Below are positions 7,066 to 36,877 of a stretch of DNA of 64,000 nt, in pieces (the first letter of the stretch is position 1; each line of letters begins with the position of its first letter). Made by a program: the position numbers and the translations under genes. The stretch is from a virus: positions 204 through 64,203 of the IMG/VR virus record IMGVR_UViG_3300010396_000038; one strand, written 5' to 3'. The notes beneath the pieces are model-generated. The model was not told the origin of the DNA. It saw only the letters and a list, made by a program, of their open reading frames with translations, and made no database searches.

Positions 7066-7288
7066 CCTGGGCAAGATCCGGATCGTAGTGCGGGCGTCGC
7101 CGCCCGGGCTGCGCACGGTGGCCTCGTTCACGCGGCAGGGCCTCGAGGACAAGCTCGAGGCCGGCGACTGGACGGTGGACAGCACCCACGAGCGGACGAT
7201 CCCGATGAGGATCGGGCCCCTCACGTACCACCAGACGCAGCACTACGCGTACGTGGTGCCACGTGCTACAATCTCGAGCCATGACTGA
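7049..7288 (+). CDS. hypothetical protein (79 aa)
   Basis: High GC3; ends in an ATGA-type overlap with the next gene. Confidence 0.4.
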   Translation: MPPSSSLGKIRIVVRASPPGLRTVASFTRQGLEDKLEAGDWTVDSTHERTIPMRIGPLTYHQTQHYAYVVPRATISSHD

Positions 7289-8521: not shown

Positions 8522-8804
8522 CATCAAGATAGTCGACGACACCGACAGCGGCGACTGGCAGGCGATCTACGTGGACGGCGCGCTCCTCTACGAGGACCAC
8601 TACCTCGAGGCGGACCGGGTCCTGGACGTGCTCGGGGTCGGGTTCGAGTACGTCCGCGCCCTCACGGACGACTCGGGCCACTTCCCGAAGAGGTTCGCCG
8701 ACGTGACGACGGAGAGGGAGTCGAGGCGGCGCGAGCTCCTGGAGGAGGCGGAGCGCCTGCGCGAGCAGGCGGAGATCCTCGAGGCGGAGGCGGCGGGTGT
8801 CTAG
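8514..8804 (+). CDS. hypothetical protein (96 aa)
   Basis: High GC3; acidic C-terminal coiled-coil-like segment. Confidence 0.45.
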   Translation: MRDIKIVDDTDSGDWQAIYVDGALLYEDHYLEADRVLDVLGVGFEYVRALTDDSGHFPKRFADVTTERESRRRELLEEAERLREQAEILEAEAAGV

Positions 8805-14661: not shown

Positions 14662-15161
14662 TACTTGTAGACGTCGAGGCCACCGGCATCTCGCCGCACG
14701 GCGGGGTCATGACGGAGTTCGGCGCGGTCGAGTTCAAGAGCAGGGCGACGTACCACGGCGTGCTGTGGGACGCGGAGCCGGACCCGGAGAACCCCGCCAA
14801 GCCGCGGCTGCTGGAGAGACAGCGCCCGGAGCACAAGCAGTTCGAGCACGAGCACGACGTCATGTCGGCCTTCGAGGGGTGGCTGGGCCGGGTCACGAAG
14901 GGCCGGCCGATCTTCGTGTCGGACAACCCGGCGTACGACTTCATGTGGGTCGCGTGCTACTTCGACAAGACGCTCGGGCGGAACCCGTTCGGGCACTCGG
15001 CGAGGCGCATCGGCGACTTCTACGCCGGCCTGTGCGGGGACTTCCAGCAGACACAGAAATGGAAGAGCCTGCGGGTGACCAAGCACGACCACAACCCCGT
15101 GAATGACGCGATGGGCAACGCCGAGGCGCTCGCGGAGCTGATCCACGTGGCGGAGGCATGA
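14652..15161 (+). CDS. DEDD-family 3'-5' exonuclease (DnaQ/RNase T-like)
   Basis: Exo I motif ILVDVEATG; later DNPAYD and HNPVNDA motifs. GTG start overlapping the upstream gene. Confidence 0.7.
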   Translation: MGLILVDVEATGISPHGGVMTEFGAVEFKSRATYHGVLWDAEPDPENPAKPRLLERQRPEHKQFEHEHDVMSAFEGWLGRVTKGRPIFVSDNPAYDFMWVACYFDKTLGRNPFGHSARRIGDFYAGLCGDFQQTQKWKSLRVTKHDHNPVNDAMGNAEALAELIHVAEA

Positions 15162-15349
15162 TGACGCTCGAGGAGTGGCAGGCGGGCGTCACGGGCGTCG
15201 AGCGGGTCGGCGACGGCTACCGCTACGCGAGCGGCGGCGTGACGTACCACGGGACCGTGGCGGCGCTCAGGACGGTCCTGAGGTCGCTGGACGAGCGCGT
15301 GTGGGCGCCGGCGCTTGGACCGGGACGAACGACGAACGGAGAGACATGA
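15158..15349 (+). CDS. hypothetical protein (63 aa)
   Basis: ATGA overlap start. Confidence 0.4.
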   Translation: MMTLEEWQAGVTGVERVGDGYRYASGGVTYHGTVAALRTVLRSLDERVWAPALGPGRTTNGET

Positions 15350-15819
15350 GCACGATCACGCCGCCCAAGGAGGCGGTTCACGGGCGCAAGTCCGTCTTCC
15401 TGGCGGGCGGCATCACGGGCTGTCCGGACTGGCAGACGGACGCCGTCGACATGCTGGAGAGGGAGCACCACAGGGCCGGGATGGCGGGCGTGCCGTTCGA
15501 CGTGTACAACCCGCGGAGGCCGGACTTCGACACGTCCGACCCCGGCATGACGGTGCAGCAGATCCACTGGGAGCACAGGCACCTGCGCAAGGCGGCCGTG
15601 ATCCTGTTCTGGTTCTGCGCCGAGACCCTGCAGCCGATCTCGCTGTACGAACTCGGTGCGTGGTCCATGACGAACAAGCCGATCGTGGTGGGCTCGCACC
15701 CGGACTACCCGCGCCGGCAGGACGTGGTGATCCAGACGATGCTGTCGCGGCCGGACGCCTACGTCATAGGCGACCTGGAGGAGACCGTGCGGCTGGCCGA
15801 GAGGACGCTGCTCACGTGA
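15346..15819 (+). CDS. nucleoside 2-deoxyribosyltransferase-like / DNPH1-like protein
   Basis: SVFLAGGITGCPDWQ Rossmann-like N-terminus, typical of the NDT/DNPH1 fold. ATGA overlap start. Confidence 0.45.
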   Translation: MSTITPPKEAVHGRKSVFLAGGITGCPDWQTDAVDMLEREHHRAGMAGVPFDVYNPRRPDFDTSDPGMTVQQIHWEHRHLRKAAVILFWFCAETLQPISLYELGAWSMTNKPIVVGSHPDYPRRQDVVIQTMLSRPDAYVIGDLEETVRLAERTLLT

Positions 15820-16049: not shown

Positions 16050-16169
16050 GCTGGCTGACGAGGTGGCTGCTGACCAGGCTGGTGCGCCTGGCGCGGAGGC
16101 GGGTCGAGAAGCTCACCGCCAGGATTTCGGACCCGGGAGGCCCCCGCCGGGTCTAGTAGTATCTTCTCC

Positions 16170-16673
16170 GTGACGAATAACGGAGAGACCAACCCGAAGG
16201 TCGACGCGGCGACCAGGGACGGCAAGGCGCCGCTCGACCTTCTGGAGAACACGGCCGACGAGGCCATCGCCTGGGCGCTCAAGGACGGCGCGACCAAGTA
16301 CGGGAAGCAGAACTACAGGACGATCCCGATCTACATGTCGACGTACGCGGCGGCGATCCGCCGGCACGTCGGCGCGTGGCTCGACGGCGAGGACGACGCC
16401 GCCGACTCGGGACTGCACCACCTCGCCCACGTCGGGGCGAACCTGCACGTCGTGTTCGGCGCGATGGACGCCGGCACGCTCGTGGACGACCGCGGGCCGC
16501 AGGAGCGGTCCCCGGAGCAGGAGGCCCGCTCGACGGCGTCGAACGGGCAGCACTCCCGCGGACTGGGCGCGGAGGGCTGGAGGGAGCGGCTCTACCCCTG
16601 CGCGGACTGCGGTAAGGTCAAGAACGCGCGGCCGGACATGTACTGCGGCGTGTGCGTGGAGGACTATCAATGA
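16170..16673 (+). CDS. dATP/dGTP diphosphohydrolase N-terminal-domain-like protein
   Basis: KAPLDLLENTADEAIAWALKDGATKYGKQNY resembles the K.R.DL.P..AL..VA.VL..GA.KY..NW signature, recalled from memory. C-terminal CxxC..CxxC. Confidence 0.4.
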   Translation: MTNNGETNPKVDAATRDGKAPLDLLENTADEAIAWALKDGATKYGKQNYRTIPIYMSTYAAAIRRHVGAWLDGEDDAADSGLHHLAHVGANLHVVFGAMDAGTLVDDRGPQERSPEQEARSTASNGQHSRGLGAEGWRERLYPCADCGKVKNARPDMYCGVCVEDYQ

Positions 16674-16861
16674 CGGAGCAAGACCTGCACGACGTCAAGG
16701 GGCTCGTGCACTACCTCAACACGGCGCTCGGCCGGCAGCACGAGGGGCAGGACGTCGAGGCCGAGGTCGTCCTGCACAGCAGGAAGACCGGCGACTGGGT
16801 CGGCCGCGTCGCCTACAACGGCGTGGACCAGTACGTCTTCGTGCCGGGTGACGACCGGTGA
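16670..16861 (+). CDS. hypothetical protein (63 aa)
   Basis: ATGA overlap start. Confidence 0.4.
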   Translation: MTEQDLHDVKGLVHYLNTALGRQHEGQDVEAEVVLHSRKTGDWVGRVAYNGVDQYVFVPGDDR

Positions 16862-17430
16862 GCGAGATCGAGCTGTACTCGGGGGAGTACCTGGACCTCG
16901 AGCGCCCGGACCCGAGGCGGATCAACCTGGACGACATCGCGGTGGGGCTCTCGAGGGAGCACCGGTACGCGGGCCAGTCCAGGCTGCCGTACACGGTCGC
17001 GGAGCACGCGTGCCTCGTCCAGAGGCGAGTGCGCGACGAGGGCGGCACCGCGCTGGACCAGCTGGCGGCGCTCCACCACGACGACTCGGAGGCCCTGATC
17101 AAGGACGTCCCGGCGCCGCTGAAGAGGCTGCTGCCGGAGTACAGGGCGGTCGAGACGCGGGTCATGGCGGCGATCCTTACGGCCCTCGGGCTCGACGGCC
17201 TCGGCGTCGACGACGAGATCGTGCACGACGCGGACATGTGGGCGAGGGCGCAGGAGGCGCACGAGCTCATGCCGTCCAGGGGCGTAGGCGTGCACTGGGA
17301 CCTCGAGTACGTCTGGGACGGCAAGTGGCGGCGCCTCGGTCAGGTGGACGCCGACGACGCGCGGGTCCGGTGGCTCGCGACGCACTACCTGCTGATGGCC
17401 ATGTCCGGCCTGAGAAACGTGGAGGTCTGA
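16858..17430 (+). CDS. HD-domain phosphohydrolase (YfbR-like 5'-deoxynucleotidase family)
   Basis: H..EHA..V and LHHDDSEALIKD HD motifs. GTGA overlap start. Confidence 0.65.
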   Translation: MSEIELYSGEYLDLERPDPRRINLDDIAVGLSREHRYAGQSRLPYTVAEHACLVQRRVRDEGGTALDQLAALHHDDSEALIKDVPAPLKRLLPEYRAVETRVMAAILTALGLDGLGVDDEIVHDADMWARAQEAHELMPSRGVGVHWDLEYVWDGKWRRLGQVDADDARVRWLATHYLLMAMSGLRNVEV

Positions 17431-20272: not shown

Positions 20273-21511
20273 ATGTCAGAGATCAACTTCGTAGATTGCC
20301 AGGGCCTCGCGGGTGCGTTCACCCTCGGGACCGTACAGGCGGGGTTCAATCTCGTCCACCGCGTCTCGCTCGAGGGCGGGTTCGGGGACGAGGTCGTGGA
20401 TCGCAACCGCCACCTGCTGGGCGACGGGTGGCGCCAGGACGAGGGCACGCTGCCCGAGGAGTGGGCCAGGGGCGCCGCCGGCGTCGTGTGCGGCACGCCG
20501 CCGTGCGCCGGCTTCTCCATGATGAACACCCGGAACGAGCGCGGACCGGACAACCCGATCAACCACTGCATGGCGAAGCTCGTCGAGTACGGCGCGCTGT
20601 GCTGGGGCGCCGACGGGGAGCGGGGCGCCGAGATCATCTCCTTCGAGTCGGTCCAGGGCGCCTTCAAGAAAGGCCGCGGCCTCATGCAGGCCCTCCGGGA
20701 GCTGGCCGACGAGACCTCGGGCCAGCGGTACGACCTGCACCACGTGATGATGTCGGGCGCGAGCGTCGGCTCGGCGCAGTACCGCCCGAGGTACTACCTC
20801 GTGCTCTCGCGGGTGCCGTTCGGCATCGACGAGCCGCGGCGGGAGGACACGCCTGACGGGCGGGTCGTGACGTACTACGACGCGCTCGCGGACCTCATGG
20901 GCCTCGACCACGAGACCTGGGACGACCAGGCCTACCTCTACGGGCCGGCCAGCGAGTACGCCGCCGCCCTGCGCAGGGCCGACGGCATGGTCGACCAGCA
21001 CTTCGCGAAGGACGGCACGCTGAGCCGGGTCATCCGGGAGGCGTGCGAGCGCGGGATGCAGCCGAAGTGGTACCTGAGCCAGGCGTTCGACTGGCTGGAC
21101 TACCACCCGCCGGAGTTCGCGGGCTCGCGCGGCGTGCGGAAGGTCTCCCGGGAGGGATCGACCTACCGCGGCTTCTCGTGGCCCAGGCGCGTCCCGCCGG
21201 ACAAGAACGGCTGGGTCGTCACGGGCGGTGCGGTGCGCGAGTTCATCCACTGGTCCGAGCCGAGGCTGTTCACCATCCGCGAGCTGACCAGGATGATGGG
21301 GTACCCGGACGACTGGCGCTGGCCGGACAAGACCACCGGCAAGACCGGCGCCCTCATCGGGAAGTGCTGCCCGGTCACGTCCGGTCGCTGGCTGGCGACG
21401 TGGTTCCGGCGCTCGCTCGAGGGGTCCCCGGGCGCCCTGGGCGAGTCGATCGGCGAGCGGGAGTACCTCTACGACTACACGAGGACATTCAAGTCATGGG
21501 AGCAGTCATGA
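20273..21511 (+). CDS. DNA (cytosine-5)-methyltransferase
   Basis: Motif I FVDCQGLAGAFTLG, motif IV GTPPCAGFSMMN (PC), ENV-like FESVQG, QYRPRYYLV (QxRxR). Confidence 0.85.
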   Translation: MSEINFVDCQGLAGAFTLGTVQAGFNLVHRVSLEGGFGDEVVDRNRHLLGDGWRQDEGTLPEEWARGAAGVVCGTPPCAGFSMMNTRNERGPDNPINHCMAKLVEYGALCWGADGERGAEIISFESVQGAFKKGRGLMQALRELADETSGQRYDLHHVMMSGASVGSAQYRPRYYLVLSRVPFGIDEPRREDTPDGRVVTYYDALADLMGLDHETWDDQAYLYGPASEYAAALRRADGMVDQHFAKDGTLSRVIREACERGMQPKWYLSQAFDWLDYHPPEFAGSRGVRKVSREGSTYRGFSWPRRVPPDKNGWVVTGGAVREFIHWSEPRLFTIRELTRMMGYPDDWRWPDKTTGKTGALIGKCCPVTSGRWLATWFRRSLEGSPGALGESIGEREYLYDYTRTFKSWEQS

Positions 21512-22281
21512 GCGACCTCCGAATCGGGGACCACGTCTACCACGAGAGGTACGGGCACGGCGTCGTGGACGGGAACGAGTACTCGAACGGCGTGAGGAAC
21601 GGCCGCGAGCAGCACGTCTTGTTCGACGGCGTGCGCCGGTCGTGCCGGCCGTCGGGCCTGCGGCTGATCGACGCCGACAGGGGGCCGAGGATCCTGGTCA
21701 TCGACATCGAGACGATGGCCAACCTGGTCTGGGCCTGGGGCACCTGGCAGCAGAACATCGCGCCGAACCAGATCGTGGAGCCCAAGCGCACGATCTGCTT
21801 CGCGGCCAAGTGGGCCGGCGAGGACGGGGTCGAGTTCTACTCGGAGTTCCACGACGGCCGAGCGGACATGATCGAGGCGGCCTGGGGCCTGATCGACGAG
21901 GCGGACGCCATCGTCGGGTACAACTCCAAGCGGTTCGACATCAAGCACCTGGGCACGGAGTTCCTGCTGGCGGGCTACAGGCCGCCGAGCCACTTCCAGC
22001 ACATCGACCTGTACCAGATCGCCAAGCGGGAGTTTGCGTTCTCCTCCAACAAGCTGGGGTCGGTCGCCGAGCGGCTGGAGCTCGGGGAGAAGATGGAGCA
22101 CGAGGGCATGAGCCTCTGGACGAAGTGCGAGGGCGGCGACGCCGAGGCCTGGGACCGCATGCGGGCGTACAACGTCCAGGACGTGCTCCTGACCGAGCAG
22201 CTGTTCGACGAGCTCCGGCCCTGGATCCCGCTGCGCGGCACCCAGTCCCAGAAGCGCCTGCGCGAGGTGCTGGGGACGTGA
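21508..22281 (+). CDS. DEDDy 3'-5' exonuclease with small N-terminal beta domain
   Basis: LVIDIETMA, YNSKRFD and YNVQD motifs. ATGA overlap start. Confidence 0.7.
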   Translation: MSDLRIGDHVYHERYGHGVVDGNEYSNGVRNGREQHVLFDGVRRSCRPSGLRLIDADRGPRILVIDIETMANLVWAWGTWQQNIAPNQIVEPKRTICFAAKWAGEDGVEFYSEFHDGRADMIEAAWGLIDEADAIVGYNSKRFDIKHLGTEFLLAGYRPPSHFQHIDLYQIAKREFAFSSNKLGSVAERLELGEKMEHEGMSLWTKCEGGDAEAWDRMRAYNVQDVLLTEQLFDELRPWIPLRGTQSQKRLREVLGT

Positions 22282-22300: not shown

Positions 22301-23176
22301 ATGAGCGAGTACACGATAGGCGAGGGCGCGGAGTCGTTCCTGCGCGCGAAGCGCCGGCGGCTGGCCGCGTCCTCCTATGAGTCGTACTCGGCCGTGATCG
22401 CGAAGCTGGTGCGGCACTTCGGGGCGGACACGCCCGTGTCCAGGCTCGAGCCGCCGGACGGCACCGACCTCATGGAGCAGTTCATGGAGGACCACTGGGG
22501 CGAGACCCCGTACGCCTTCAACCGGAACATGAGCGTGGTCCGCGGCCTCATGGAGCACCTGATCCAGCGGGAGCGGCTGCACCGCGACCCGACCAAGCCC
22601 ATCGAGCGGGCGCGGCCCGAGCGGCACGCCAGGACCACGTTCGACCGCGAGACGGTGGACCAGATCCTGGCCGCGGCCGAGGGCCCGCGCGACCGGATCG
22701 CGCTCAGGCTGCTGCTGGTCTACGGCCTGCGTAAGGGCGCCCTGGGCGGGATCCAGCTCGTGTGCTTCGACACCGTCAGGCGGATGGTGTCGTTCAAGAC
22801 CAAGGGCGGGCGCTACCACGCCGTCCCGATCGTCGGGGACGAGCTCTGGGCCGACCTCGCCGAGCTCGGGGGCCACCCCGGGGACTACCTGCTCCACAGG
22901 CGCGGGACGACGAAGGAGCCGATGAGCCCGCACGGCGTGCACCTCTGGTGGTACGCGAGGCTCGCGGACGCCGGCGTGGTGGAGCGGGGGACGACCTCCG
23001 GCCAGCGCATGCACAAGGCGCGGCACACCGCCGGCCAGCGGGTCCTCGACGGGACGGGCAACCTGAAGGCGGCGCAGCGGCTGCTCGGGCACGCCTCGAT
23101 CCAGACGACCGGGGACGTCTACACGGACTGGGACTCGGAGGACCTCCGAGGCACGATGGAGAGTCTCCGGGACTGA
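22301..23176 (+). CDS. int: tyrosine integrase/recombinase
   Basis: R..(K)..ARHTAGQR (HxxR) and LLGHASIQTTGDVY catalytic Tyr motif. Confidence 0.85.
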   Translation: MSEYTIGEGAESFLRAKRRRLAASSYESYSAVIAKLVRHFGADTPVSRLEPPDGTDLMEQFMEDHWGETPYAFNRNMSVVRGLMEHLIQRERLHRDPTKPIERARPERHARTTFDRETVDQILAAAEGPRDRIALRLLLVYGLRKGALGGIQLVCFDTVRRMVSFKTKGGRYHAVPIVGDELWADLAELGGHPGDYLLHRRGTTKEPMSPHGVHLWWYARLADAGVVERGTTSGQRMHKARHTAGQRVLDGTGNLKAAQRLLGHASIQTTGDVYTDWDSEDLRGTMESLRD

Positions 23177-23187
23177 GTCCCGGGGAC
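23163..23187 (+). terminator. stem-loop at the integrase stop codon (GTCTCCGGGAC tga GTCCCGGGGAC, one U-G pair)
   Basis: Inverted repeat read directly from the sequence; the loop is the TGA stop codon. Confidence 0.3.
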
Positions 23188-23199
23188 GACGGCCCCTCA

Positions 23200-23218
23200 C
23201 GTTAGCGTTGGACTAACG
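23200..23218. promoter_or_regulatory. palindromic operator-like motif CGTTAG-CGTTGGA-CTAACG (copy 1)
   Basis: 6-7-6 inverted repeat. A near-identical copy lies at 26890..26908. Sits 13 nt upstream of a TTGCGA -35-like hexamer. Confidence 0.4.
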
Positions 23219-23231
23219 CAGACCGCCGGGG

Positions 23232-23260
23232 TTGCGAGGACCGCGCCGACCCGCAACAAT
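23232..23260 (+). promoter_or_regulatory. promoter-like element TTGCGA-N17-AACAAT upstream of the amidoligase operon
   Basis: Hexamers and spacing read from the sequence. 35 nt upstream of the GTG start at 23296, which has an RBS ACGGAGG. Confidence 0.3.
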
Positions 23261-23295
23261 GCATCCGCAAGCCAATCTGAGCGAACGGAGGTCTG

Positions 23296-24453
23296 GTGCC
23301 GAGCGATACGTGGGTCTACTGGGACAGCAGGTACGACTGCCGTTCCGTCGGCCACTGGCCGAACGCCGTCTACCAGTTCCGGCGCCGGCACCCAGACGGG
23401 TCGACGGGCCCCGCGCTGGCCGGACGCCTCTGCCCGCGCTGCGACAGCGTCCGGCCCCTCGACCGCGACAACTTCTACATCCGGCCCAGCGGGCGCGCGG
23501 AGTACTGCGTCACCTGCCACACCGAGTACTACCAGGAGCGCGCCCGGAACCGGCGCGCGGCCCAGAACCCGGCGCGGCTGCAGTTCGGGGTCGAGATCGA
23601 GTACTCCTTCAAGTCCGGCCGCGTGGACCGGCCCGACCGGGGGACGCTCGCCCAGCTGCTCCGGGAGGCCGGGATCGACTGCCAGGAGCAGAACTACAAC
23701 CACCAGGTCCGGGCCGGCTGGAAGATAGTGCCGGACGCGTCGGTGACGGCGGGCGGCGAGCTCGTCTCCCCGCCGATGCGGTTCGAGGACGGGTCGTTCG
23801 AGCAGATCACCAAGGCGTGCGACGTGCTGCGCGCCGCGGGGTGCACGGCGGACTCGACGTGCGGCCTGCACGTCCACCTGGAGGTCCGCGGGTACGGCCC
23901 GCGCAAGATCAAGGACGTGTACCGGACCTGGTACAACAACCAGGAGACGATCGACCTGACGGTGGCCCGCAGCCGGCGGGACGGGCGGTGGTGCTCGCAC
24001 CTGACGCAGAGCGACATGAGCCGGGTCGAGGGCATCGACCCGACCGAGAACGCGACCAAGACCGGGCTGGCGCGGATCGACCGCTACAAGAACGTCAACG
24101 GCAACTGCTACGGCAGGCAGGGGACGCTCGAGATCCGGCTCCACCAGGGCACAGTCCTCGGGAGCAAGATCGAGCACTGGGTGCGGTTCTGCAAGTCCAC
24201 GTTCACGCTGGCCCACGAGGGGGTCACGGACGAGCAGGCCGGGCTGGGGTCGCTGCTGACGGCGTGCCGGTCCCACGGGCTGCCGGAGGAGTCGGTCGCG
24301 TTCATGCAGAGGCGGGCGCTCCAGCTGTCCACGCCCCGCGGTCGCCGGCCGGAGCCGGAGCCGGCCGGGGTGCTCAACGAGACGCAGCTTTACGTGACGC
24401 GGGCGGACGGCACCACGACGCCCATCGGTGACCTCGCGCTGGTGGGCTCATGA
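23296..24453 (+). CDS. amidoligase (Amidoligase_2 family, GS-like fold)
   Basis: Signature ..ADSTCGLHVHLEV.. plus a conserved Arg/Glu-rich core. GTG start. Confidence 0.7.
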   Translation: MPSDTWVYWDSRYDCRSVGHWPNAVYQFRRRHPDGSTGPALAGRLCPRCDSVRPLDRDNFYIRPSGRAEYCVTCHTEYYQERARNRRAAQNPARLQFGVEIEYSFKSGRVDRPDRGTLAQLLREAGIDCQEQNYNHQVRAGWKIVPDASVTAGGELVSPPMRFEDGSFEQITKACDVLRAAGCTADSTCGLHVHLEVRGYGPRKIKDVYRTWYNNQETIDLTVARSRRDGRWCSHLTQSDMSRVEGIDPTENATKTGLARIDRYKNVNGNCYGRQGTLEIRLHQGTVLGSKIEHWVRFCKSTFTLAHEGVTDEQAGLGSLLTACRSHGLPEESVAFMQRRALQLSTPRGRRPEPEPAGVLNETQLYVTRADGTTTPIGDLALVGS

Positions 24454-24701
24454 TCGAGCTCCTGTGGCCGAACGGCGAGGTGTCGTCCGGCGAGACGTGG
24501 CGGGACGTCGAGGACTCGGTGAGGTCCTCGCAGTGGTCCCCGTACAAGACGCGGGCCGAGTTCAGGCGCGAGATGCGCCGCAGGGCCCTGGTGTGGAGCG
24601 GGCAGACCGTCCGCACCGGCCGGACCTCCGAGTCCTTCATCAAGGCGCTCGGGGCAGTCAACATGTTCATGATCGTGGAGGACGGCGATGTCGCAGAGTA
24701 G
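24450..24701 (+). CDS. hypothetical small protein (83 aa) ending in ..EDGDVAE
   Basis: ATGA overlap start; sandwiched between the amidoligase and the C26 peptidase; acidic C-terminus. Confidence 0.45.
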   Translation: MIELLWPNGEVSSGETWRDVEDSVRSSQWSPYKTRAEFRREMRRRALVWSGQTVRTGRTSESFIKALGAVNMFMIVEDGDVAE

Positions 24702-25632
24702 GAAGACGAGAGAGCGTGGGCCCGAGCGGCCCCGGGTGCTCGTGCTGGAGGCCCTGGCCGGGGGCGCGGACTGCGTGCAGGCGGCCGGCGGGGCGCCGCT
24801 CGACGTGCGCCCGACGGACATCGAGCACGCGGAGGCGATGATCGAGGAGGGCGACTGGCACGGCCTGCTCCTCACGGGCGGCGGCGACGTGGACCCGCGC
24901 ATGTACGGGCAGCGCCCCAAGCCGGAGGTGTACGGCGTCTCGGAGACGCGGGACCTCATAGAGACGTACGCGCTGGAGATGGCCCGGGACAAGGGCGTGC
25001 CGGTGCTGGGCATCTGCCGGGGCAGCCAGCTGATCAACGTCGAGGCGGGCGGGGCCCTCCAGCAGCACATCGACGGCCACCGGGGCGTCGACCACGACGT
25101 GCGCGCCAAGAAGGGTTCGGTCCTGCGCAGGGCCGCCGGCAGCAGCCCGCGGGTCGTGTCCCTGCACCACCAGCAGATCTCCCGCGTGGCCCGGGGCTAC
25201 GTGGTCTCCGGCCGCGCGCCGGACGGCACGGTCGAGGCGATCGAGTCGCGCAACGGGCGCGTCCTGGGCGTGCAGTTCCACCCGGAAATGGACCCGTACG
25301 AGACGTACGCCCAGGGCATCTTCAGGTGGCTCGTGCTCGAGTCGGCGCGGCGCGCCGGGATGCCCGACCCGCCGCTGGGGACCCTCCGGCGCAAGTCGGT
25401 GGCGCCCAGCAGGTACCAGTCGGTGCGCCGCAAGCGCGCGAGCCGGCCGGTCCGGGCGCCCCGGCCGACGTTCGGGCCGGGCGTCCGGGTGTCGTGGATC
25501 TGCCCGCACTGCGGGATCAGGTTCGACAAGGAGCAGGACAAGATCGACCACGTCGAGATCCTGCACGGCCCGGACGCGCAGCTCAGGCGCGCCAGGTTCA
25601 TCGAGAGAGCGACGAAAGGATACGGACGATGA
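24688..25632 (+). CDS. class I glutamine amidotransferase-like peptidase C26 (gamma-glutamyl hydrolase, PuuD-like) fused to a C-terminal C2H2 zinc finger
   Basis: GICRGSQLINV catalytic Cys. VSLHHQQI resembles SFHHQ. HPE His. C-terminal CPHCGIRFDKEQDKIDHVEILH = C-x2-C-x12-H-x4-H. Confidence 0.7.
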   Translation: MSQSRKTRERGPERPRVLVLEALAGGADCVQAAGGAPLDVRPTDIEHAEAMIEEGDWHGLLLTGGGDVDPRMYGQRPKPEVYGVSETRDLIETYALEMARDKGVPVLGICRGSQLINVEAGGALQQHIDGHRGVDHDVRAKKGSVLRRAAGSSPRVVSLHHQQISRVARGYVVSGRAPDGTVEAIESRNGRVLGVQFHPEMDPYETYAQGIFRWLVLESARRAGMPDPPLGTLRRKSVAPSRYQSVRRKRASRPVRAPRPTFGPGVRVSWICPHCGIRFDKEQDKIDHVEILHGPDAQLRRARFIERATKGYGR

Positions 25633-25949
25633 GCAGGAAACTGCACCCGGGCACCGGGAAGGTCGCCGCGGGGAGGCCCAGGACGCGCTGCGGCCTGACG
25701 CCGTCGGACATGCTGGAGAGGTGCGACCGGATGTTCCGGAGGCGCGGCTTCACGGTCAACGAGTTCATCGCCAGGGAGCACTGGCAGCGCACCTCGGGCA
25801 GGGTCGAGGGCGCCCGCGAGCTCCTCCAGGCGCTGGTGCAGGACGGCCTGGTCGGGCGGGGCTCGCGGTGCGACGTCGGGTACTCGACCGAGGTCGAGTA
25901 CGTCGTCCTGGAGGCCGGCCGCCTGGCGGCCGAGGCGCTCCGCGCGTGA
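25629..25949 (+). CDS. hypothetical protein, possibly winged-helix DNA-binding
   Basis: ATGA overlap start; FTVNEFIAREHW..ARELLQALVQDGLV helix-rich segment. Confidence 0.3.
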   Translation: MSRKLHPGTGKVAAGRPRTRCGLTPSDMLERCDRMFRRRGFTVNEFIAREHWQRTSGRVEGARELLQALVQDGLVGRGSRCDVGYSTEVEYVVLEAGRLAAEALRA

Positions 25950-26029
25950 GGGTCTGCGGGTCGTGCGGGCACCCGAGGTCGCACCCGGCCCATTTTCTGG
26001 CGCACTACTCGAACAGGAACGGAGACGGC

Positions 26030-26200
26030 ATGAGCAGGACACTGACGGGAGCACAGGAGAGGACCCTCGACCGCGTCTGCGAGTCGGCGGCCTGCGACAG
26101 GACGCGGGTCATCGGCTGGCTGGCCGGCGGCCCGGTGCTGCGGTTCGACAACGGAGGCCTGGCGATCATCTCGCCGAACGGCCTGATCAACGACCTGTAG
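26030..26200 (+). CDS. hypothetical protein (56 aa)
   Basis: RBS GGAGACGG; high GC3. Confidence 0.4.
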   Translation: MSRTLTGAQERTLDRVCESAACDRTRVIGWLAGGPVLRFDNGGLAIISPNGLINDL

Positions 26201-26211
26201 GAGGTCAGAGC

Positions 26212-26475
26212 ATGAGAAGGAAACTCCCGGAAGGGTACAGGGCCAGGTTCCAGCACATCCGCCGCCGCGAGCCGCGGCGTCCCGGCTTCGCCGAGACGGA
26301 GGGCGGGGTGTCGGCGAAGGGCGGTCTCACGGTGGTCAAGGTCTTCGACCCGGAGGACAACCTGGTGATCACGGCGAAGGCGGTGTGCAACCCGCAGGAC
26401 TCGTTCAACAAGAGGATCGGGCGCGACATCTCGCTCGGGCGAGCGCTCAAGGCGATGGAGGAGCGCGGGCTGTGA
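26212..26475 (+). CDS. hypothetical protein (87 aa)
   Basis: High GC3; conserved-looking VVKVFDPEDNLVITAKAVCNPQDSFNKRIGRDISLGRAL. Confidence 0.4.
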   Translation: MRRKLPEGYRARFQHIRRREPRRPGFAETEGGVSAKGGLTVVKVFDPEDNLVITAKAVCNPQDSFNKRIGRDISLGRALKAMEERGL

Positions 26476-26906
26476 GGGAGCCCGTCGAGGCCGGCCAGCG
26501 GATGGCGTTCTACGGGATCCTCGTGGACGACCGTCAGCTGGCCGAGGTCGGCGCCTACGGCGGGAGGTGCCTGGTCCGGGGCAGGATGTGGGACGTGAGG
26601 CACTTCCCGGGCGTGACCCTGCGCGGCGCCGCCGGGGACGTCGCGCACGCGCGCCTCTGGTCGCCGCCCGCGGACGACCTGGACCGCGCGCTGGTGGTGG
26701 CCGCGCTGGACAACGTCGAGGGCTACACGGGGGACCCGGCGACGTCGATGTACATGCGCCGCTGGGTGAGGCTCGCGTGGCCCGCCGACGAGTGGGCCTG
26801 GGTCTACGAGTGGAACTACGAGACGGACGGCCTGCTGCCCGTGCCGGGCGGGGACTGGCGAGCCTGGACGGGCCGTCCCTGGCCCAAAACGTTAGCGTTA
26901 CACTAA
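26472..26906 (+). CDS. gamma-glutamyl cyclotransferase-like (AIG2/GGCT fold) protein
   Basis: N-terminal AFYGILVDD resembles the YGTL/YGSL motif. Later LDNVEGY resembles LD..EG..Y. GTGA overlap start; an alternative ATG lies at 26502. Confidence 0.5.
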   Translation: MREPVEAGQRMAFYGILVDDRQLAEVGAYGGRCLVRGRMWDVRHFPGVTLRGAAGDVAHARLWSPPADDLDRALVVAALDNVEGYTGDPATSMYMRRWVRLAWPADEWAWVYEWNYETDGLLPVPGGDWRAWTGRPWPKTLALH

Positions 26907-26908
26907 CG
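26890..26908. promoter_or_regulatory. palindromic operator-like motif CGTTAG-CGTTACA-CTAACG (copy 2), overlapping the last codons of the GGCT-like gene
   Basis: 17/19 identical to copy 1. Sits 4 nt upstream of a TTGCGA -35-like hexamer. Confidence 0.4.
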
Positions 26909-26912
26909 GCAG

Positions 26913-26944
26913 TTGCGAACGCGGACCACACGGACTATTATAAT
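26913..26944 (+). promoter_or_regulatory. promoter-like element TTGCGA-N17-TATTATAAT (extended AT-rich -10)
   Basis: The best consensus-like promoter in the window. A leaderless ATG at 26948 or the RBS-preceded ATG at 26984 follows. Confidence 0.45.
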
Positions 26945-26983
26945 CCCATGAGTCAGCGCGACCCCCACAACCCGAAGGAGAGC

Positions 26984-27385
26984 ATGAGCAACGCACTGAA
27001 GGCCGCTGGAGCGGTCCTCGCGACCGTCGTAGTGGTCGCCGCGATCGTCCTCGGCGGCTGGGCCGTCGGATGGTGGTTCACCACCCAGAACACCAACCGG
27101 GAGGCCCACCTCTACCGCAGTTCCTACGGGAACCAGCAGACCCTGCGCGACGCGATCACGGCCGGAATCTCGCAGGTGGCCACCGACACGTCGCAGGTCG
27201 ACGCCACGTCGGGCCAGGAGCAGGCCGACCTCAAGGCCCAGCGCTACGCCCACGTCGGGCAGGTCTGCGCCGAGGCCGCGCAGGTCACGGGCGACCCGCT
27301 GTCGGCCGACCAGCAGGCGTTCGTCTCGACGAACTGTTCCGCGGGCGCGGTGAGCCCGACCTCCCAGTACGCGCCCGGCCGCTAG
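26984..27385 (+). CDS. membrane-anchored protein (N-terminal TM helix)
   Basis: RBS AAGGAGAG. TM segment AVLATVVVVAAIVLGGWAVGWWF. An alternative leaderless start lies at 26948. Confidence 0.5.
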   Translation: MSNALKAAGAVLATVVVVAAIVLGGWAVGWWFTTQNTNREAHLYRSSYGNQQTLRDAITAGISQVATDTSQVDATSGQEQADLKAQRYAHVGQVCAEAAQVTGDPLSADQQAFVSTNCSAGAVSPTSQYAPGR

Positions 27386-27405
27386 GCCGGCACGAAAGGA
27401 ACCAC

Positions 27406-27996
27406 ATGAAGCGCAACCGCACCGCCCTCGCCGTCGCGTCGCTGGCGGTCGTCTTCTCGGTCGCTGCCTGCGGCCACGGCAACGCCACCAACAGGGCCCA
27501 GGTCATCGAGCAGAAGCAGCAGGGCATCGACTCCTACAACCTCGACGTCAACCAGCCGGTCCCCGGCTTCAACCGCTCCGTGATCAGGCAGGAGCTGATC
27601 GACATCCAGACCGCCGAGGCCAACGGGGAGCAGTCCACGACGTTCTTCATGAACTTCTCCGACCACCCCGAGGGGTCGTGCCCGTCGCTCGGCGCCCCGG
27701 TCCCGACCACCGACCAGCTCACCAACCCGGTGCAGGTGCAGAAGGACAACGTCGCGCCGATCTGGAACGGCGGCGGCAACGTCGGCATCGGGCAGGAGGA
27801 CCCGATCGGCGTCTACACCGGCGACTCCAGCGGCACCTGGGTCATGTGCGTGGACACCAACGACGGCAAGGTCGTCCCGCAGTATTGGGAGGGCAACGTC
27901 CGGGTGGTCATGGGCCCCGCCGTCTGGGACTCGGCGACCAACGGCCCGAAGCTCACCGGTGAGCCGTCCAGCCTCTTCCAGAACCTGAAGCACTAA
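27406..27996 (+). CDS. lipoprotein (signal peptide + lipobox VAAC)
   Basis: MKRNRTALAVASLAVVFSVAAC.. signal; RBS GAAAGGAACC. Confidence 0.6.
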   Translation: MKRNRTALAVASLAVVFSVAACGHGNATNRAQVIEQKQQGIDSYNLDVNQPVPGFNRSVIRQELIDIQTAEANGEQSTTFFMNFSDHPEGSCPSLGAPVPTTDQLTNPVQVQKDNVAPIWNGGGNVGIGQEDPIGVYTGDSSGTWVMCVDTNDGKVVPQYWEGNVRVVMGPAVWDSATNGPKLTGEPSSLFQNLKH

Positions 27997-28490: not shown

Positions 28491-28874
28491 GTGGCGAACC
28501 CGTACCACCACGCGGTCTCGTCCGCCCGGAAGTGGGGCGGGAAGCCGGAGGACTACCTGCACGTGCACGAGTGGTTCGACGAGACCAAGGGCTGGCTGCC
28601 GGACTTCCGGCACCGCTCGGTCCGTCACCACTCGGAGGGCATCGCGCAGGCGGTGGAGCTGTTCCCGCCGATCCACATCCCGATGAGGCGCAAGGGCGGC
28701 GTGGACCGGATCAAGGTGGTCCCGATCCGGTGGGTGGCCGAGCAGCACGTGACGGAGGACCTCGGGCGGATCCCGACGGCCGCCGACTGGCTGCGGGCGA
28801 TGAGGCCGGAGCCGTGGATGACCAGGGCCAGGAAACTTTCAATCGAGCTGGAGGAAGAGGAGGTGGCGGCGTGA
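28491..28874 (+). CDS. hypothetical protein (127 aa)
   Basis: High GC3; GTG start. Confidence 0.45.
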   Translation: MANPYHHAVSSARKWGGKPEDYLHVHEWFDETKGWLPDFRHRSVRHHSEGIAQAVELFPPIHIPMRRKGGVDRIKVVPIRWVAEQHVTEDLGRIPTAADWLRAMRPEPWMTRARKLSIELEEEEVAA

Positions 28875-34491: not shown

Positions 34492-35415
34492 ATGCCAGAT
34501 CACCGCGACGTAGGAGTTGTGGTAGGTAGGTTCCAGGTCCCCGAGCTGCACGACGCGCACAGGAACCTGATCCAGAGGGTGTGCGACTCGCACGGGAAGG
34601 TGCTGATCTTCCTTGGGGTCTCGCCGCTCTGGTCCACGAAGCAGAACCCGCTGGACTTCGAGGCCAGGAAGCAGATGATCCTCGCGGCGTTCCCGCAGGT
34701 GAGCGTCCTGTACGTCAAGGACGTGAACGACGACGCCCTGTGGTCCAAGCGCCTGGACGCGATGATCTCGGACGTGGTCACGCCGGCGCAGTCCGTGCTG
34801 CTGTACGGCGGCCGGGACTCGTTCGTGAGTCGGTACTCCGGCCGCTACCCGACCACGGAGCTGGAGCAGGACACCTGGGTGTCCGGCTCGGTGATCCGCG
34901 ACCAGGTCAGGAGGAGCTCCGTCAAGGCGACGGCCGACTTCCGGGCCGGCGTCGTGTGGGGCGCCTTCTGCAGGTACCCGACCTGCTACCCGACGGTGGA
35001 CGTGGCGATCCTCAACGAGAGCCAGACCAAGATCCTGCTCGGGCGCAAGCCCTACGAGAAGAAGTTCCGCCTGATCGGTGGGTTCGCGGAGCCGGACTCC
35101 GTCTCGTACGAGCAGGACGCCAGGCGCGAGGTGGCCGAGGAGGTCGGCGTCGAGATCACGGACCCGGAGTACATCGGGAGCTTCAAGGTCGACGACTGGC
35201 GGTACCGCGGGGAGACGGACAAGATCAAGACGCTCCTGTTCCTCGCGCGGTACATGCACGGCGTGGTGCGGCCGGGGGACGACATCGTGGAGGCCAGGTG
35301 GTTCCCCGTCGACGAGGCGGACGTCGTGGAGACGCACCGGCGCCTCATGACCGAGGTCAGGTACCACACCGACCGAGCCCGCAAGGCGAAGGTCCAAGAT
35401 ACGGATAAGGACTAG
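34492..35415 (+). CDS. nadM: bifunctional NMN adenylyltransferase / Nudix hydrolase (NadM-Nudix type)
   Basis: N-terminal nucleotidyltransferase GRFQVPELHDAHRNLI (H.AH motif). C-terminal Nudix box REVAEEVGVE. Confidence 0.75.
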   Translation: MPDHRDVGVVVGRFQVPELHDAHRNLIQRVCDSHGKVLIFLGVSPLWSTKQNPLDFEARKQMILAAFPQVSVLYVKDVNDDALWSKRLDAMISDVVTPAQSVLLYGGRDSFVSRYSGRYPTTELEQDTWVSGSVIRDQVRRSSVKATADFRAGVVWGAFCRYPTCYPTVDVAILNESQTKILLGRKPYEKKFRLIGGFAEPDSVSYEQDARREVAEEVGVEITDPEYIGSFKVDDWRYRGETDKIKTLLFLARYMHGVVRPGDDIVEARWFPVDEADVVETHRRLMTEVRYHTDRARKAKVQDTDKD

Positions 35416-35419: not shown

Positions 35420-36877
35420 ATGGACAACATCATCCTCGCCACGGACAGCTACAAGCTGACGCACTGGCGGCAGTACCCGCCCGGAACGCGGACGGTCTAC
35501 TCGTACCTCGAGAGCCGGGAGGGGGCGGAGTTCCCGGAGACGGTGTTCTTCGGGCTCCAGGCCGTCCTGAACCAGTACCTGCTCGACCCAGTCGAGCCGT
35601 GGATGCTGGTCGAGGCCGTCAACCTGGGCAGGGCGCACTTCGGGGCGGACCTGGTGAACGAGGCCGGCTGGCGGCGGGTCATCGGCGACCACGACGGGTA
35701 CCTGCCCCTCAGGATCCGGGCGGTGCCCGAGGGCACGCCCGTGCCCACGGGCAACGTGCTGATGACGGTCGAGAACACGGACCCGGAGCTACCGTGGCTG
35801 ACGAACGCCGTGGAGAGCCTGCTGACGCACGTCTGGTACCCGTCGACCGTGGCCACGCTGAGCCGCCAGGTCAAGAAGGACATCGCCCACTGGCTCGAGG
35901 CGACGACGGGCTCGACCGACGGCGCGGACCTGATGCTTCAGGACTTCGGGTACCGCGGGGCGGCGACGCACGACGCCGCGGCGATCGGCGGGGCCGCGCA
36001 CCTGGTCAACTTCCTGGGTTCGGACACGCTGCCGGCGATGCTGTTCGCCCAGGAGCACTACGGGGCGTCGTTCGACGGGCTGGCGTACTCCGTGCCGGCG
36101 ACCGAGCACTCGGTCATGACCGCGCGCGGCCGGGACGGCGAGGCGGACGTGGTCCGGCAGCTCCTGGACGCGTACCCGAGCGGGATCCTGTCGGTGGTCG
36201 CGGACAGCTACGACATCTACCGGTTCGTCGAGAAGTACGTGGGCGAGACGTTCAAGGCCCCGATCATGCAGCGAGACGGCACCTTCGTGGTGCGGCCCGA
36301 CTCGCTGACCAAGCACCACTGGACGCCGGAGACGCTCGTCCTGTGGATCGTCCAGAGCCTGGGCGGCAGTTTCGGGTACGAGACGACCCCGCAGGGGTAC
36401 AGGGTCCTGGATCCGCACGTGCGGGTCCTGTGGGGCGACGGGATCGACCGCGAGGGCGTCAGGGCGATCCTCTCGACGCTGGCGGGCGCCGGCTGGGCGG
36501 CCAACAACATGGTGTTCGGCATGGGCGGCGGCCTGCTGCAGAAAGTCAACCGGGACACGCAGCGGTTCGCGTTCAAGTGCTCCGCCATGGAGGACGCGGA
36601 CGGCTGGCGGGACGTCCAGAAGATGCCGCTCGACGCGAGCAAGGTCTCGAAGGCCGGCCGATTCCAGCTAAGCCGGTTCACGGACGAGCACGGCGACCCG
36701 CACTACGACACGCTGCCGCTCGGGACGAGGGTCGCCATGACTGCGGACATCAGGATCGGCCGGCACGGCGACGACCGCCGGAGCACCGAGTCCGACGTGC
36801 TCGAGGACGTCTTCCTGAACGGGGACCTCGAGCGGTACCAGAGGTTCGACGACGTCCGTCGTCGGGCGGCGCTCTGA
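35420..36877 (+). CDS. nadV: nicotinamide phosphoribosyltransferase (NAMPT/NadV)
   Basis: N-terminal NIILATDSYKLTHW signature; 485 aa. Confidence 0.85.
   Translation: MDNIILATDSYKLTHWRQYPPGTRTVYSYLESREGAEFPETVFFGLQAVLNQYLLDPVEPWMLVEAVNLGRAHFGADLVNEAGWRRVIGDHDGYLPLRIRAVPEGTPVPTGNVLMTVENTDPELPWLTNAVESLLTHVWYPSTVATLSRQVKKDIAHWLEATTGSTDGADLMLQDFGYRGAATHDAAAIGGAAHLVNFLGSDTLPAMLFAQEHYGASFDGLAYSVPATEHSVMTARGRDGEADVVRQLLDAYPSGILSVVADSYDIYRFVEKYVGETFKAPIMQRDGTFVVRPDSLTKHHWTPETLVLWIVQSLGGSFGYETTPQGYRVLDPHVRVLWGDGIDREGVRAILSTLAGAGWAANNMVFGMGGGLLQKVNRDTQRFAFKCSAMEDADGWRDVQKMPLDASKVSKAGRFQLSRFTDEHGDPHYDTLPLGTRVAMTADIRIGRHGDDRRSTESDVLEDVFLNGDLERYQRFDDVRRRAAL

Follow-up and report, generated by a model that had tools for sequence, protein, structure and literature searches.

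Phage gene neighborhoods that combine an Amidoligase_2 enzyme with an amidotransferase and an AIG2/GGCT protein were predicted by Iyer, Abhiman, Burroughs, and Aravind (Mol Biosyst 2009). Cassettes of Pseudomonas phages PA11/O4 and LUZ24/UFV-P2, phiEco32, and Pseudoalteromonas RIO-1/HP1 pair Amidoligase_2 with a protein of glutamine amidotransferase fold within early gene blocks, and several PA11/O4-, LUZ24-, phiEco32-, and RIO-1-type phages also carry an AIG2/GGCT protein; these cassettes further encode a second amidotransferase and two more ligases, one of COOH-NH2 and one of ATP-grasp (RimK-like) type (multi-ligase “peptidoglycan modification” cassettes; Hardies et al. 2013, PMC5498523, PMC3890496). 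The logic of a GS-fold gamma-glutamyl-amine ligase acting with a C26 gamma-glutamyl-amide hydrolase is found in PuuA/PuuD of Escherichia coli, PauA/SpuA of Pseudomonas aeruginosa, and GlnA3/GlnA4 of Streptomyces. In butirosin synthesis, a gamma-glutamyl protecting group is added by an ATP-dependent ligase, BtrJ (an ATP-grasp enzyme whose substrate is bound to an acyl-carrier-protein), and later stripped by an AIG2/GGCT-fold cyclotransferase, BtrG.

The cassette analyzed here, from the genome of a large, uncultured, high-GC phage, is, judged from its sequence, a one-ligase version of this already known, predicted phage amidoligase cassette. Its features within the window (the whole 64-kb stretch of DNA that was analyzed) are as follows.

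23200..23218, no strand: palindrome copy 1, CGTTAG-N7-CTAACG then TTGCGA, in the recombinase-ligase intergenic gap
23296..24453, plus strand: predicted ATP-dependent carboxylate-amine ligase, 385 aa (Pfam Amidoligase_2, 7.9e-26)
24450..24701, plus strand: 83-aa putative ligase partner ending in EDGDVAE; joined to the ligase gene by an ATGA stop/start overlap
24688..25632, plus strand: PuuD/SpuA-like cysteine hydrolase of class-I amidotransferase fold (Peptidase_C26, aa 27-200; PF07722, 1.3e-46)
25629..25949, plus strand: 106-aa protein (GC-frame plot); start overlaps the C26 stop (ATGA)
26030..26200, plus strand: 56-aa conserved protein, opening the second coupled block (GC-frame plot)
26212..26475, plus strand: 87-aa protein, weakly Rv2632c-like (PF08962, E 0.0029, 18 bits, cutoff 25)
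26472..26906, plus strand: GGCT/GGACT (AIG2)-like gamma-glutamyl cyclotransferase-fold protein (profile matches to PHROG and YtfP)
26890..26941, plus strand: palindrome copy 2 (26890-26908) and a sigma-70-like promoter for the next gene, at the downstream end of the cassette

The earlier note had described a compact cassette of four genes; because GC-frame analysis reveals three further coding ORFs (25629-25949, 26030-26200, and 26212-26475) downstream of the C26 gene and ahead of the GGCT-like gene, the cassette comprises seven genes in two translationally coupled blocks separated by an 80-nt gap. Stop and start codons overlap at the ligase/83-aa, 83-aa/C26, and C26/106-aa junctions, and the minus-strand ORFs across the region, which lack coding-type GC3, were regarded as shadow ORFs. 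A weak terminator-like hairpin lies at 25977-25990, inside the gap upstream of the 26030-26200 gene. The sequence GTTAG-N7-CTAAC occurs only twice in the window, once at each end of the cassette (shuffled expectation, 0.00), and the copy at 23200..23218 is a candidate operator or boundary element. The only promoter-like site within 22800-27600 (shuffles gave 0.2) is TTGCGA-17-TATTAT at 26913-26941, directly 3' of palindrome copy 2. The cassette neighbors early DNA-metabolism genes and is followed by membrane-protein and lipoprotein genes. Gene order is kept in three diverged relatives, and ligase, small protein, C26, winged-helix-like protein, a protein of ~60 aa, and GGCT follow one another in loci L004 and L010, with ligase identities of 36 to 48%.

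The CGLHVH signature previously read in the ligase is present (as CGLHVHLE) within an Amidoligase_2 domain (aa 94-301) that is preceded by a disordered N terminus, a CxxC...CxxC zinc ribbon (C46, C49, C71, and C74; about nt 23431-23517), and a basic helix. Structurally, the enzyme is nearer YbdK, GS, and GCL than PafA, and closest to YbdK/GCS2 rather than to GS type I, which distinguishes it from the ligases of the PuuA/PauA/GlnA3 pathways. No demonstrated activity for any Amidoligase_2 member was found in the searchable literature, and the acyl donor of the ligase need not be glutamate.

The hydrolase likewise bears out its earlier assignment, matching Peptidase_C26 at 159.6 bits and containing GICRGSQ, HHQ, and FHPE, with GICRG and FHPE kept in its orthologues. 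Its closest solved relatives were Lin1909 (3fij, 7.8e-25), a set of structures titled “probable glutamine amidotransferase” (7d4r/7d53/7d50, 4.5e-18) that we take to be P. aeruginosa SpuA, and PuuD (6vtv, 1.7e-11). PuuD gave the only full-length NCBIfam alignment, with 50 bits against an equivalog cutoff of 266, and the protein fell under all NCBIfam equivalog cutoffs. The C-terminal extension holds the segment CPHCGIRFDKEQDKIDHVEILH, which fits C-x2-C-x12-H-x4-H (aa about 271-293; nt about 25498-25566), and the four ligand positions are kept in 3 of 4 orthologues; to call this a eukaryote-like C2H2 zinc finger, as had been done, overstates a subthreshold pattern match (zf-C2H2_4, E 0.031, 15.4 bits against a Pfam cutoff of 27).

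The third family was recovered by other routes. Whereas the ligase and hydrolase assignments stood in Pfam, the GGCT-like ORF had no Pfam match even at an E value of ≤10, and its assignment came through profiles and an orthologue only: it matched PHROG 2520 (phrog_2520, “gamma-glutamyl cyclotransferase”) at 1.4e-4, a profile of five orthologues matched YtfP (1xhs, 2.5e-8) and YkqA (2qik, 4e-5), and the protein is 43 to 50% identical to its orthologues in L004 and L010, the latter of which carries PF06094. Its N terminus retains the (F)YG(I)L motif, and the glutamate of LDxxEG is also kept. The GTG start at 26472 overlaps the stop codon before it, with an alternative ATG at 26502.

The three families had been said to co-occur in phages, and they do. 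In the Arthrobacter phages Kovu (where genes 96-98 carry the annotations GGCT, amidoligase, and GATase) and Ottawa (genes 64-67) and in Bacillus phage 035JT001 (genes 41-45, with amidoligase and GGCT present), the same ligase family lies beside GGCT-like and amidotransferase-fold genes, and Pseudomonas phage O4 and LUZ24-like phages carry larger versions. The small partner also occurs in Ottawa (gene 67) and 035JT001 (gene 42), annotated as hypothetical in both; no member of its family was detected in the O4 cassette at an E value of ≤1. The O4 amidotransferase-fold protein is 31% identical to the C26 protein of the window, whereas the Arthrobacter phages encode a class-II (Ntn, MCG...) amidotransferase instead. 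Ligase identity is only 31 to 36%. The Arthrobacter phage ligases lack the zinc ribbon at the N terminus of the present one (alignments begin near residue 96), no C2H2-pattern finger was seen in these phages, and zinc modules are likewise absent from the multi-ligase cassettes. By orthologue comparison, the ribbon on the ligase and the finger pattern on the hydrolase are specific to the present clade and would set it apart from the known cassettes. The set is not a common host operon, with only 9 loci among 185,579 species genomes.

We tentatively favor, with a probability of about 45%, a make-and-break cycle for a gamma-glutamyl amide or amine, the chemistry, direction, and substrate of which we infer from fold and family. 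The GS/GCL-fold ligase would use ATP to convert a glutamate-type carboxylate to an acyl-phosphate and couple it to a primary amine, working with the 83-aa protein as a noncatalytic specificity or regulatory subunit; the PuuD/SpuA-like Cys-His-Glu hydrolase would return the amide to glutamate and amine, and the GGACT-like cyclotransferase would convert it to 5-oxoproline and amine. A polyamine-like amine is the most likely target class by analogy, because the closest characterized relatives of both removal enzymes use gamma-glutamyl amines (such as those of polyamines, GABA, or epsilon-lysine). The zinc ribbon and C2H2-pattern finger of this clade suggest that the chemistry may take place on or beside nucleic acid. 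The same add-then-remove logic operates in butirosin synthesis, but the phage cassette has no carrier protein or aminoglycoside genes; unlike the PuuA/PauA pathways, it sits in a phage rather than a catabolic context, and the oxidase and dehydrogenase steps are absent. Counting against such a cycle, two gamma-glutamyl-removing enzymes look redundant, the C26 fold also serves as an ammonia-supplying glutaminase, and 30 of 75 distinct Amidoligase_2 loci had none of the partner genes within the flanks examined.

The usual reading in the literature, that such enzymes remodel the cell envelope or host metabolites by altering the stem-peptide linkages of peptidoglycan or comparable host molecules that contain glutamate (for instance, in superinfection block or recycling), seems unlikely here. 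It is the published prediction for the related multi-ligase cassette of phiEco32, PA11, RIO-1, LUZ24, and Pseudoalteromonas phages (PMC5498523 and PMC11318856, both of which cite Iyer et al. 2009 and Hardies et al. 2013), and the downstream membrane-protein and lipoprotein genes are consistent with it; yet the present cassette has neither the ATP-grasp nor the COOH-NH2 ligase, none of the three enzyme sequences has an evident signal peptide or membrane segment, zinc-finger modules are unexpected for cell-wall enzymes, and the placement is among early DNA-metabolism genes.

Action of the trio on hypermodified DNA bases, as proposed in the earlier note, is possible but rather improbable. The ligase would gamma-glutamylate an amine-bearing, 5-hmdU-derived thymidine or mono-protect a diamine before its installation, and the C26 and GGCT-like enzymes would remove the glutamyl group on DNA, a deprotection for which BtrG would be a precedent by analogy. 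The phage encodes a dCMP deaminase, a dNMP phosphatase, a MazZ-like pyrophosphohydrolase, a divergent ThyA-like enzyme (Pfam, 54.6 bits; under all NCBIfam thymidylate synthase equivalog cutoffs), and a 5-hmdU DNA kinase helical-domain protein (1.7e-31) that matches M6/YuA, PaMx11, and ViI-type hypermodifying phages; the clade-specific zinc modules would also suit work on DNA, and amidoligase and glutaminotransferase Pfam matches are reported, with no function assigned, among 5-HMUDK contigs (Lee et al. 2021, PMC8989533). However, the kinase-family gene lies 13 kb from the cassette with replication genes between, neither a Walker-A kinase nor an aGPT-Pplase was found in the window, and the trio also occurs in phages not known for thymidine hypermodification. 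Co-occurrence gave no support: an HMUDK homologue lay within ±7 kb in 0 of 99 Amidoligase_2 loci, Amidoligase_2, the small protein, C26, and GGCT-like genes lay within ±10 kb in 0 of 80 HMUDK loci (a GAT-II gene in only 2), and no local link between 5-hmdU pathway genes and the cassette appeared in these 179 other loci.

It is more doubtful still that the C26 protein is a glutaminase channeling ammonia to a ligase that, as in MurT/GatD, amidates a carboxylate, with a separate role for the GGCT-like protein. The C26 protein does match GATase (3.5e-18) and GMP synthase subunit A, and in other phages a class-II (Ntn) amidotransferase accompanies the ligase instead (17 of 99 loci, compared with 10 that have C26), a swap for a nonhomologous enzyme that suggests a shared glutaminase-type role. 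Against this, the Peptidase_C26 score is far above that of GATase (66.4 bits), stand-alone gamma-glutamyl-amide hydrolases give the best full-length matches, Ntn amidotransferase folds also serve as peptidases, and ammonia-using GS-fold ligases need no glutaminase partner.

The 83-aa ORF ending in EDGDVAE was confirmed between amidoligase and hydrolase, but the Pup-like substrate role suggested for it (or a LysW-like one), in which the amidoligase would join its C-terminal Glu to a target and the hydrolase would set it free, is highly improbable: the last residue is E in just 11% (17/155) of family representatives (D, 10%; K, 10%), the closest homologues end in R, D, or A, no Glu, Asp, or Lys position is conserved above about 60% among the 155, the protein lacks a GGQ/GGE or EDWGE motif, its predicted structure is a compact domain rather than a disordered tag (beta-beta-alpha-alpha-alpha-beta with a short disordered acidic tail; pLDDT, 87), the ligase resembles PafA less than it does YbdK, GS, and GCL in structure, and, in contrast to pupylation, removal would fall to C26 and GGCT-fold enzymes and not to a Dop paralogue, with no proteasome genes seen. 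Within the favored make-and-break cycle, adjacency to the ligase instead suggests a noncatalytic partner, a specificity or regulatory subunit; small proteins are known to regulate GS-fold enzymes, as do cyanobacterial IF7/IF17 and archaeal sP26. By homology searches, the small-protein family is new, widespread, and without annotation (~1,850 clusters), with a single Arg as its only near-invariant polar residue. Of 75 distinct Amidoligase_2 loci, 32 contained a detected member, which directly follows the ligase in 25 of these, and the pairing spans phages, Actinomycetota, Desulfovibrio, Bacillota, Bacteroidota, and archaeal contigs.

As for the small ORFs between hydrolase and cyclotransferase, the 87-aa protein had no homologue in 90 loci and is absent from the syntenic relatives, and the 106-aa protein, without a Pfam or PHROG match, is possibly of winged-helix type, as judged by eye. 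The latter corresponds to the central domain of 249- to 278-aa proteins at the equivalent position in relatives (51% identity to L004:4851-5600 and 32% to L010:4671-5507), and the 56-aa protein shares 43 to 44% identity with its positional counterparts in those two loci.

The cassette at 23296-26906 (+) is a minimal version of the Amidoligase_2 cassettes that are widespread and routinely annotated in phages and were predicted in 2009: a single ligase is accompanied by one small partner and a pair of removal enzymes, and most of the genes are translationally coupled. The earlier note had described four compact, contiguous genes for an amidoligase, an 83-amino-acid (aa) protein that could be a Pup-like substrate, a gamma-glutamyl hydrolase, and a cyclotransferase; its family assignments stood and its observation was largely right, but neither the compactness nor the Pup-like idea did. 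Between the hydrolase and cyclotransferase genes, GC-frame analysis together with the sequence revealed three more open reading frames.

Additional open reading frames inside the cassette (GC-frame analysis and sequence)
25629-25949, +, 106-aa protein
26030-26200, +, 56-aa protein
26212-26475, +, 87-aa protein

Two of these three have counterparts at the same position in relatives. The cassette thus enlarged consists of two coupled blocks: the first, with overlapping stop and start codons, encodes the ligase, the small protein, the Peptidase_C26 (C26) hydrolase, and the 106-aa protein, and the second encodes the 56-aa protein, the 87-aa protein, and the GGCT-like protein, with an 80-nt gap containing a weak hairpin between them. 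The palindrome CGTTAG-N7-CTAACG occurs in only two copies in the 64 kb, one at each end of the cassette (at 23200-23218 and from 26890), and TTGCGA follows both; in the downstream copy, this TTGCGA is part of an adjoining promoter-like TTGCGA-17-TATTAT, and the two elements together span 26890-26941. The 106-aa product, possibly of the winged-helix type, is a candidate binder of this palindrome. The gene order of ligase, small protein, C26, winged-helix-like protein, ~60-aa protein, and GGCT is shared with related loci L004 and L010/L009, at ligase identities of 36 to 48%. Long minus-strand open reading frames across the cassette region were rejected as high-GC shadows.

An apparently intact tyrosine recombinase gene (22301-23176, +; Phage_integrase, 1.5e-15) lies amid early replication genes and, in all close relatives, stands directly 5' of the ligase gene with strong conservation (E down to 8e-154). 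It was considered as a component of the system, preceding the ligase in L004, L006, L009, and L010, and was rejected: the synteny extends more widely (exonuclease, DUF6915, and others), so the adjacency reflects shared ancestry and the recombinase was not counted. Just upstream of it lie genes for a C5 cytosine DNA methyltransferase and an RNase H-fold/PolB-exo-like exonuclease (20273-21511 and 21475-22281, +). Downstream of the cassette, a DUF6915 protein (28491-28874, +; 1.7e-38) and two flanking genes for unknown proteins are kept in L004 (DUF6915 at 7187-7570), while the membrane protein (26948-27385) and lipoprotein (~27400-27996) encoded between the cassette and the DUF6915 gene are found in the window and not in L004.

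All three proposed enzyme families could be assigned. The ligase gene (23296-24453) encodes an Amidoligase_2 protein (PF12224; 91.9 bits against a cut-off of 22, E = 7.9e-26, profile positions 2-243 of 245) that carries the noted CGLHVH signature as CGLHVHLE, and the conserved acidic, His, and Arg motifs are those of a glutamine synthetase (GS)-like catalytic fold. Its N terminus bears a conserved zinc ribbon (C46, C49, C71, C74) and, after it, a basic helix; at the PHROG level, this ribbon is similar to those in phage HNH and EndoVII proteins. The hydrolase (24688-25632) matches Peptidase_C26 at 1.3e-46 (159.6 bits; cut-off, 20.5) with a Cys-His-Glu triad and the GICRGSQ, HHQ, and FHPE motifs, of which GICRG, HHQ, and FHPE are kept in four orthologues. 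Among solved structures, those closest to it are Lin1909, 7d4r/7d53 (deposited as "probable glutamine amidotransferase" and presumably SpuA of Pseudomonas aeruginosa), and PuuD, which hydrolyzes gamma-glutamyl-GABA. No named enzyme (PuuD, GMP synthase subunit A, or others) could be recognized as its orthologue, the best NCBIfam score being ~50 bits against cut-offs of 198 to 266.

The C2H2 finger claimed for the hydrolase C terminus holds as a pattern and falls short of Pfam thresholds. The segment CPHCGIRFDKEQDKIDHVEILH fits C-x2-4-C-x12-H-x3-5-H, with an exact spacing of C-x2-C-x12-H-x4-H and a hydrophobic core, and all four ligands are present in three of the four orthologues (the window, L004, and L010), the finger being degenerate in L005 (second Cys lost). 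No finger profile gave a significant match (zf-C2H2_4, E = 0.031, 15.4 bits against a cut-off of 27; zf-C2H2, E = 0.11).

Assignment of the GGCT/AIG2-like protein (26472-26906) rests on three indirect lines, with no Pfam family reported even at E ≤ 10: a match to phrog_2520 (1.4e-4), an L010 orthologue (43% identical) that bears PF06094, and a five-sequence profile that matches the GGCT-fold proteins YtfP (2.5e-8) and YkqA (4e-5). The protein keeps the N-terminal YGxL motif (as FYGIL) and the glutamate of LDxxEG (as LDNVEG), which we take to be catalytic. Enzymes of the GGACT type convert a gamma-glutamyl amine to 5-oxoproline and the amine.

The 83-aa open reading frame (24450-24701) is a real coding sequence (GC3 of 0.93, with an orthologue 65% identical), yet the proposal that it is ligated through its C-terminal Glu could not be upheld, as that residue is not conserved and the protein is predicted to be folded. 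Of 155 family representatives, 17 (11%) end in E, 10% in D, 10% in K, and 9% in R; the closest homologues terminate in R, D, or A, and no family-wide GGQ/GGE or EDWGE C-terminal motif was found; no Glu, Asp, or Lys position of the family is conserved above ~60%. AlphaFold2, run on an alignment of 17 database proteins, predicted a compact beta-beta-alpha-alpha-alpha-beta domain (pLDDT of 87) with disorder limited to the last three residues. The conserved positions are instead R45 (97%), L67 (97%), F63 (93%), and three glycines. Cys ligands for a LysW-type zinc ribbon are absent from the protein, and its matches in BFVD were all uncharacterized proteins of ~80 aa, the family as a whole comprising ~1,850 clusters with none annotated.

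Of the first 90 Amidoligase_2 loci, 31 had a member of the 83-aa protein family by a local iterative search, and after deduplication 32 of 75 with enough downstream sequence had one; in 25 of these 32 it is the very next gene after the ligase, and in most of the remainder it comes after a class-II (Ntn) amidotransferase (GAT-II). Six of nine bacterial and archaeal genome loci carry it (Actinomycetota, Desulfovibrio, Bacillota, Bacteroidota, and a Methanosarcinales MAG); as for the other three, two contigs stop at the ligase gene and one has ~450 bp beyond it. Locus L005 (ligase at 5577-7750) has the small partner gene at 3740-3982, ~1.6 kb 5' of the ligase and not between ligase and C26. We take the 83-aa protein for a ligase partner without catalytic function and not for a tag. 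Small regulators of GS-fold enzymes are known (IF7/IF17 and sP26), and the family may be an obligate subunit for a large class of GS-fold ligases; no member was found in the multi-ligase cassette of Pseudomonas phage O4. Such a role changes the design of in vitro reconstitution, in which ligase and small protein should be expressed together, and a large unannotated family of ligase-partner small proteins comes to be recognized as a by-product of the analysis.

Co-occurrence of the three enzyme families in phages, as the earlier note had it, is already on record in annotations of Arthrobacter, Bacillus, and Pseudomonas phages. Genes 96 to 98 of Arthrobacter phage Kovu are annotated as gamma-glutamyl cyclotransferase, amidoligase, and glutamine amidotransferase, and the neighbor genes are the same in Arthrobacter phage Ottawa and Bacillus phage 035JT001. 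The cassettes of Pseudomonas phages O4/PA11 and LUZ24/UFV-P2 differ in being larger, with extra ATP-grasp and COOH-NH2 ligases. What is new in the locus analyzed here is the single ligase, the enzymes bearing zinc modules, and the C26 hydrolase in place of the Ntn amidotransferase. In the literature, the cassette idea goes back to Iyer et al. (2009) and Hardies et al. (2013); the usual label for the related cassette is peptidoglycan modification or superinfection exclusion (PMC5498523, PMC11318856); our searches of the literature found neither an experimental test of the cassette nor a demonstrated activity for any Amidoligase_2 member. A common host operon was also considered and rejected, since 185,579 species, each represented by one genome, yielded 9 related loci. 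A defense-system reading was rejected, as none of 8 proteins matched PADLOC models at E ≤ 0.01.

The simplest reading of the sequences is a make-and-break cycle, in which a gamma-glutamyl amine would be formed by the ligase and split again by the C26 and GGCT-like enzymes. In a rival reading, the C26 protein would act as a glutaminase and supply the ligase with ammonia; in its favor, other phages swap C26 for an Ntn amidotransferase (17 loci versus 10), and against it, the C26 score of the hydrolase is much above its GATase score. As to the target of a make-and-break cycle, a polyamine or a cell wall precursor, if true, would settle a 15-year-old substrate question. The added zinc modules hint at the site of the chemistry. 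The trio of ligase, GAT-II, and GGCT-like protein may be recurrently associated with DNA-acting proteins. In the circularly permuted genome of Kovu (L001, L091), the right-end GGCT/amidoligase/GAT-II trio adjoins left-end genes for ParB-like nuclease-domain proteins, a PAPS reductase-like protein, and an acetyltransferase, and in Ottawa (L002) ParB-like nuclease genes lie just 3' of the trio.

A target on DNA was considered in the light of the nucleotide-pool genes of the phage and a helical-domain protein of the 5-hmdU DNA kinase (HMUDK) family.

Nucleotide-metabolism and HMUDK-family features in the window
1975-2454, +, dCMP deaminase
2996-3874, +, divergent ThyA-like enzyme, possible dUMP hydroxymethylase (Pfam, 54.6 bits)
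9465-10409, +, HMUDK helical-domain protein (PF18723, 1.7e-31)
15142-15819, +, nucleoside 2-deoxyribosyltransferase-like protein
16074-16673, +, MazZ-like dATP/dGTP diphosphohydrolase N-terminal domain
16852-17430, +, dNMP 5'-phosphatase

The ThyA-like enzyme scores under every thymidylate synthase equivalog cut-off of NCBIfam. The HMUDK match covers the helical domain only, with no Walker-A motif in this protein or its neighboring genes; the protein has homologues in YuA/M6, PaMx11, ViI-like, and SP10-like phages, all known to hypermodify thymidine. Thymidine is probably replaced or hypermodified in this phage. Directly 5' of the HMUDK-family gene, and overlapping it, is a gene for a Thg1-like tRNA-His guanylyltransferase homologue (8707-9495, +; Pfam, 1.2e-28; phrog_4717, 4.9e-83), where phage YuA has a P-loop kinase gene (gp13).

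With its zinc-ribbon ligase and finger-bearing hydrolase acting on DNA, the cassette could perform reversible gamma-glutamylation of the free amine on a 5-hmdU-derived hypermodified thymidine or mono-protection of a diamine; in the latter variant, the single free end of a glutamyl-capped diamine would attack 5-phosphomethyl-dU. Besides the zinc modules and the genes listed here, this idea draws on amidoligase and glutaminotransferase Pfam matches among 5-HMUDK contigs (Lee et al. 2021, PMC8989533). Yet we consider it improbable: the cassette lies 13 kb from the kinase-family gene, neither a Walker-A kinase nor an aGPT-Pplase match was found among the open reading frames scanned in the window (half of the 128-kb genome), and no physical or phyletic linkage of the cassette to HMUDK or aGPT-Pplase genes was supported. 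An HMUDK homologue lay within ±7 kb in 0 of 99 ligase loci, the ligase, small protein, C26, and GGCT-like genes lay within ±10 kb in 0 of 80 HMUDK loci, and a search of close relatives for HMUDK returned none. Should the DNA reading nonetheless be true, it would provide the first example of a "glutamyl-capped" DNA base, give Amidoligase_2 its first assigned function, and add a new step to thymidine hypermodification. A GAT-II homologous to the Arthrobacter phage type lies near HMUDK in 2 of 80 viral loci, both without Amidoligase_2: in L105 (3297-4046) it starts 13 bp past the kinase-family match, and in L114 (6611-7339) it is ~2.7 kb upstream of the match.

The wider window, with a G+C content of ~70%, carries replication and nucleotide-metabolism genes of phage type on the + strand from ~2 to 39 kb, including those for PolA, an SNF2 helicase, an RNA ligase, a PD-(D/E)XK nuclease, and a C5 methyltransferase, and tail and baseplate genes on the − strand from 39.5 kb on. 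The ligase protein is recorded on one JGI contig only, of 128 kb; because a megablast search of the cassette against 50,697 GenBank phage records gave zero matches and the best PolA match, from actinophages, is ~34% identical, we conclude that the phage is large and uncultured and that its host is probably an actinobacterium. An NMNAT-like and NUDIX protein (34492-35415, +) followed by a nicotinamide phosphoribosyltransferase (35420-36877, +) looks like an NAD+ reconstitution pathway of the phage, which we presume to be counter-defense of the NARP2 type.
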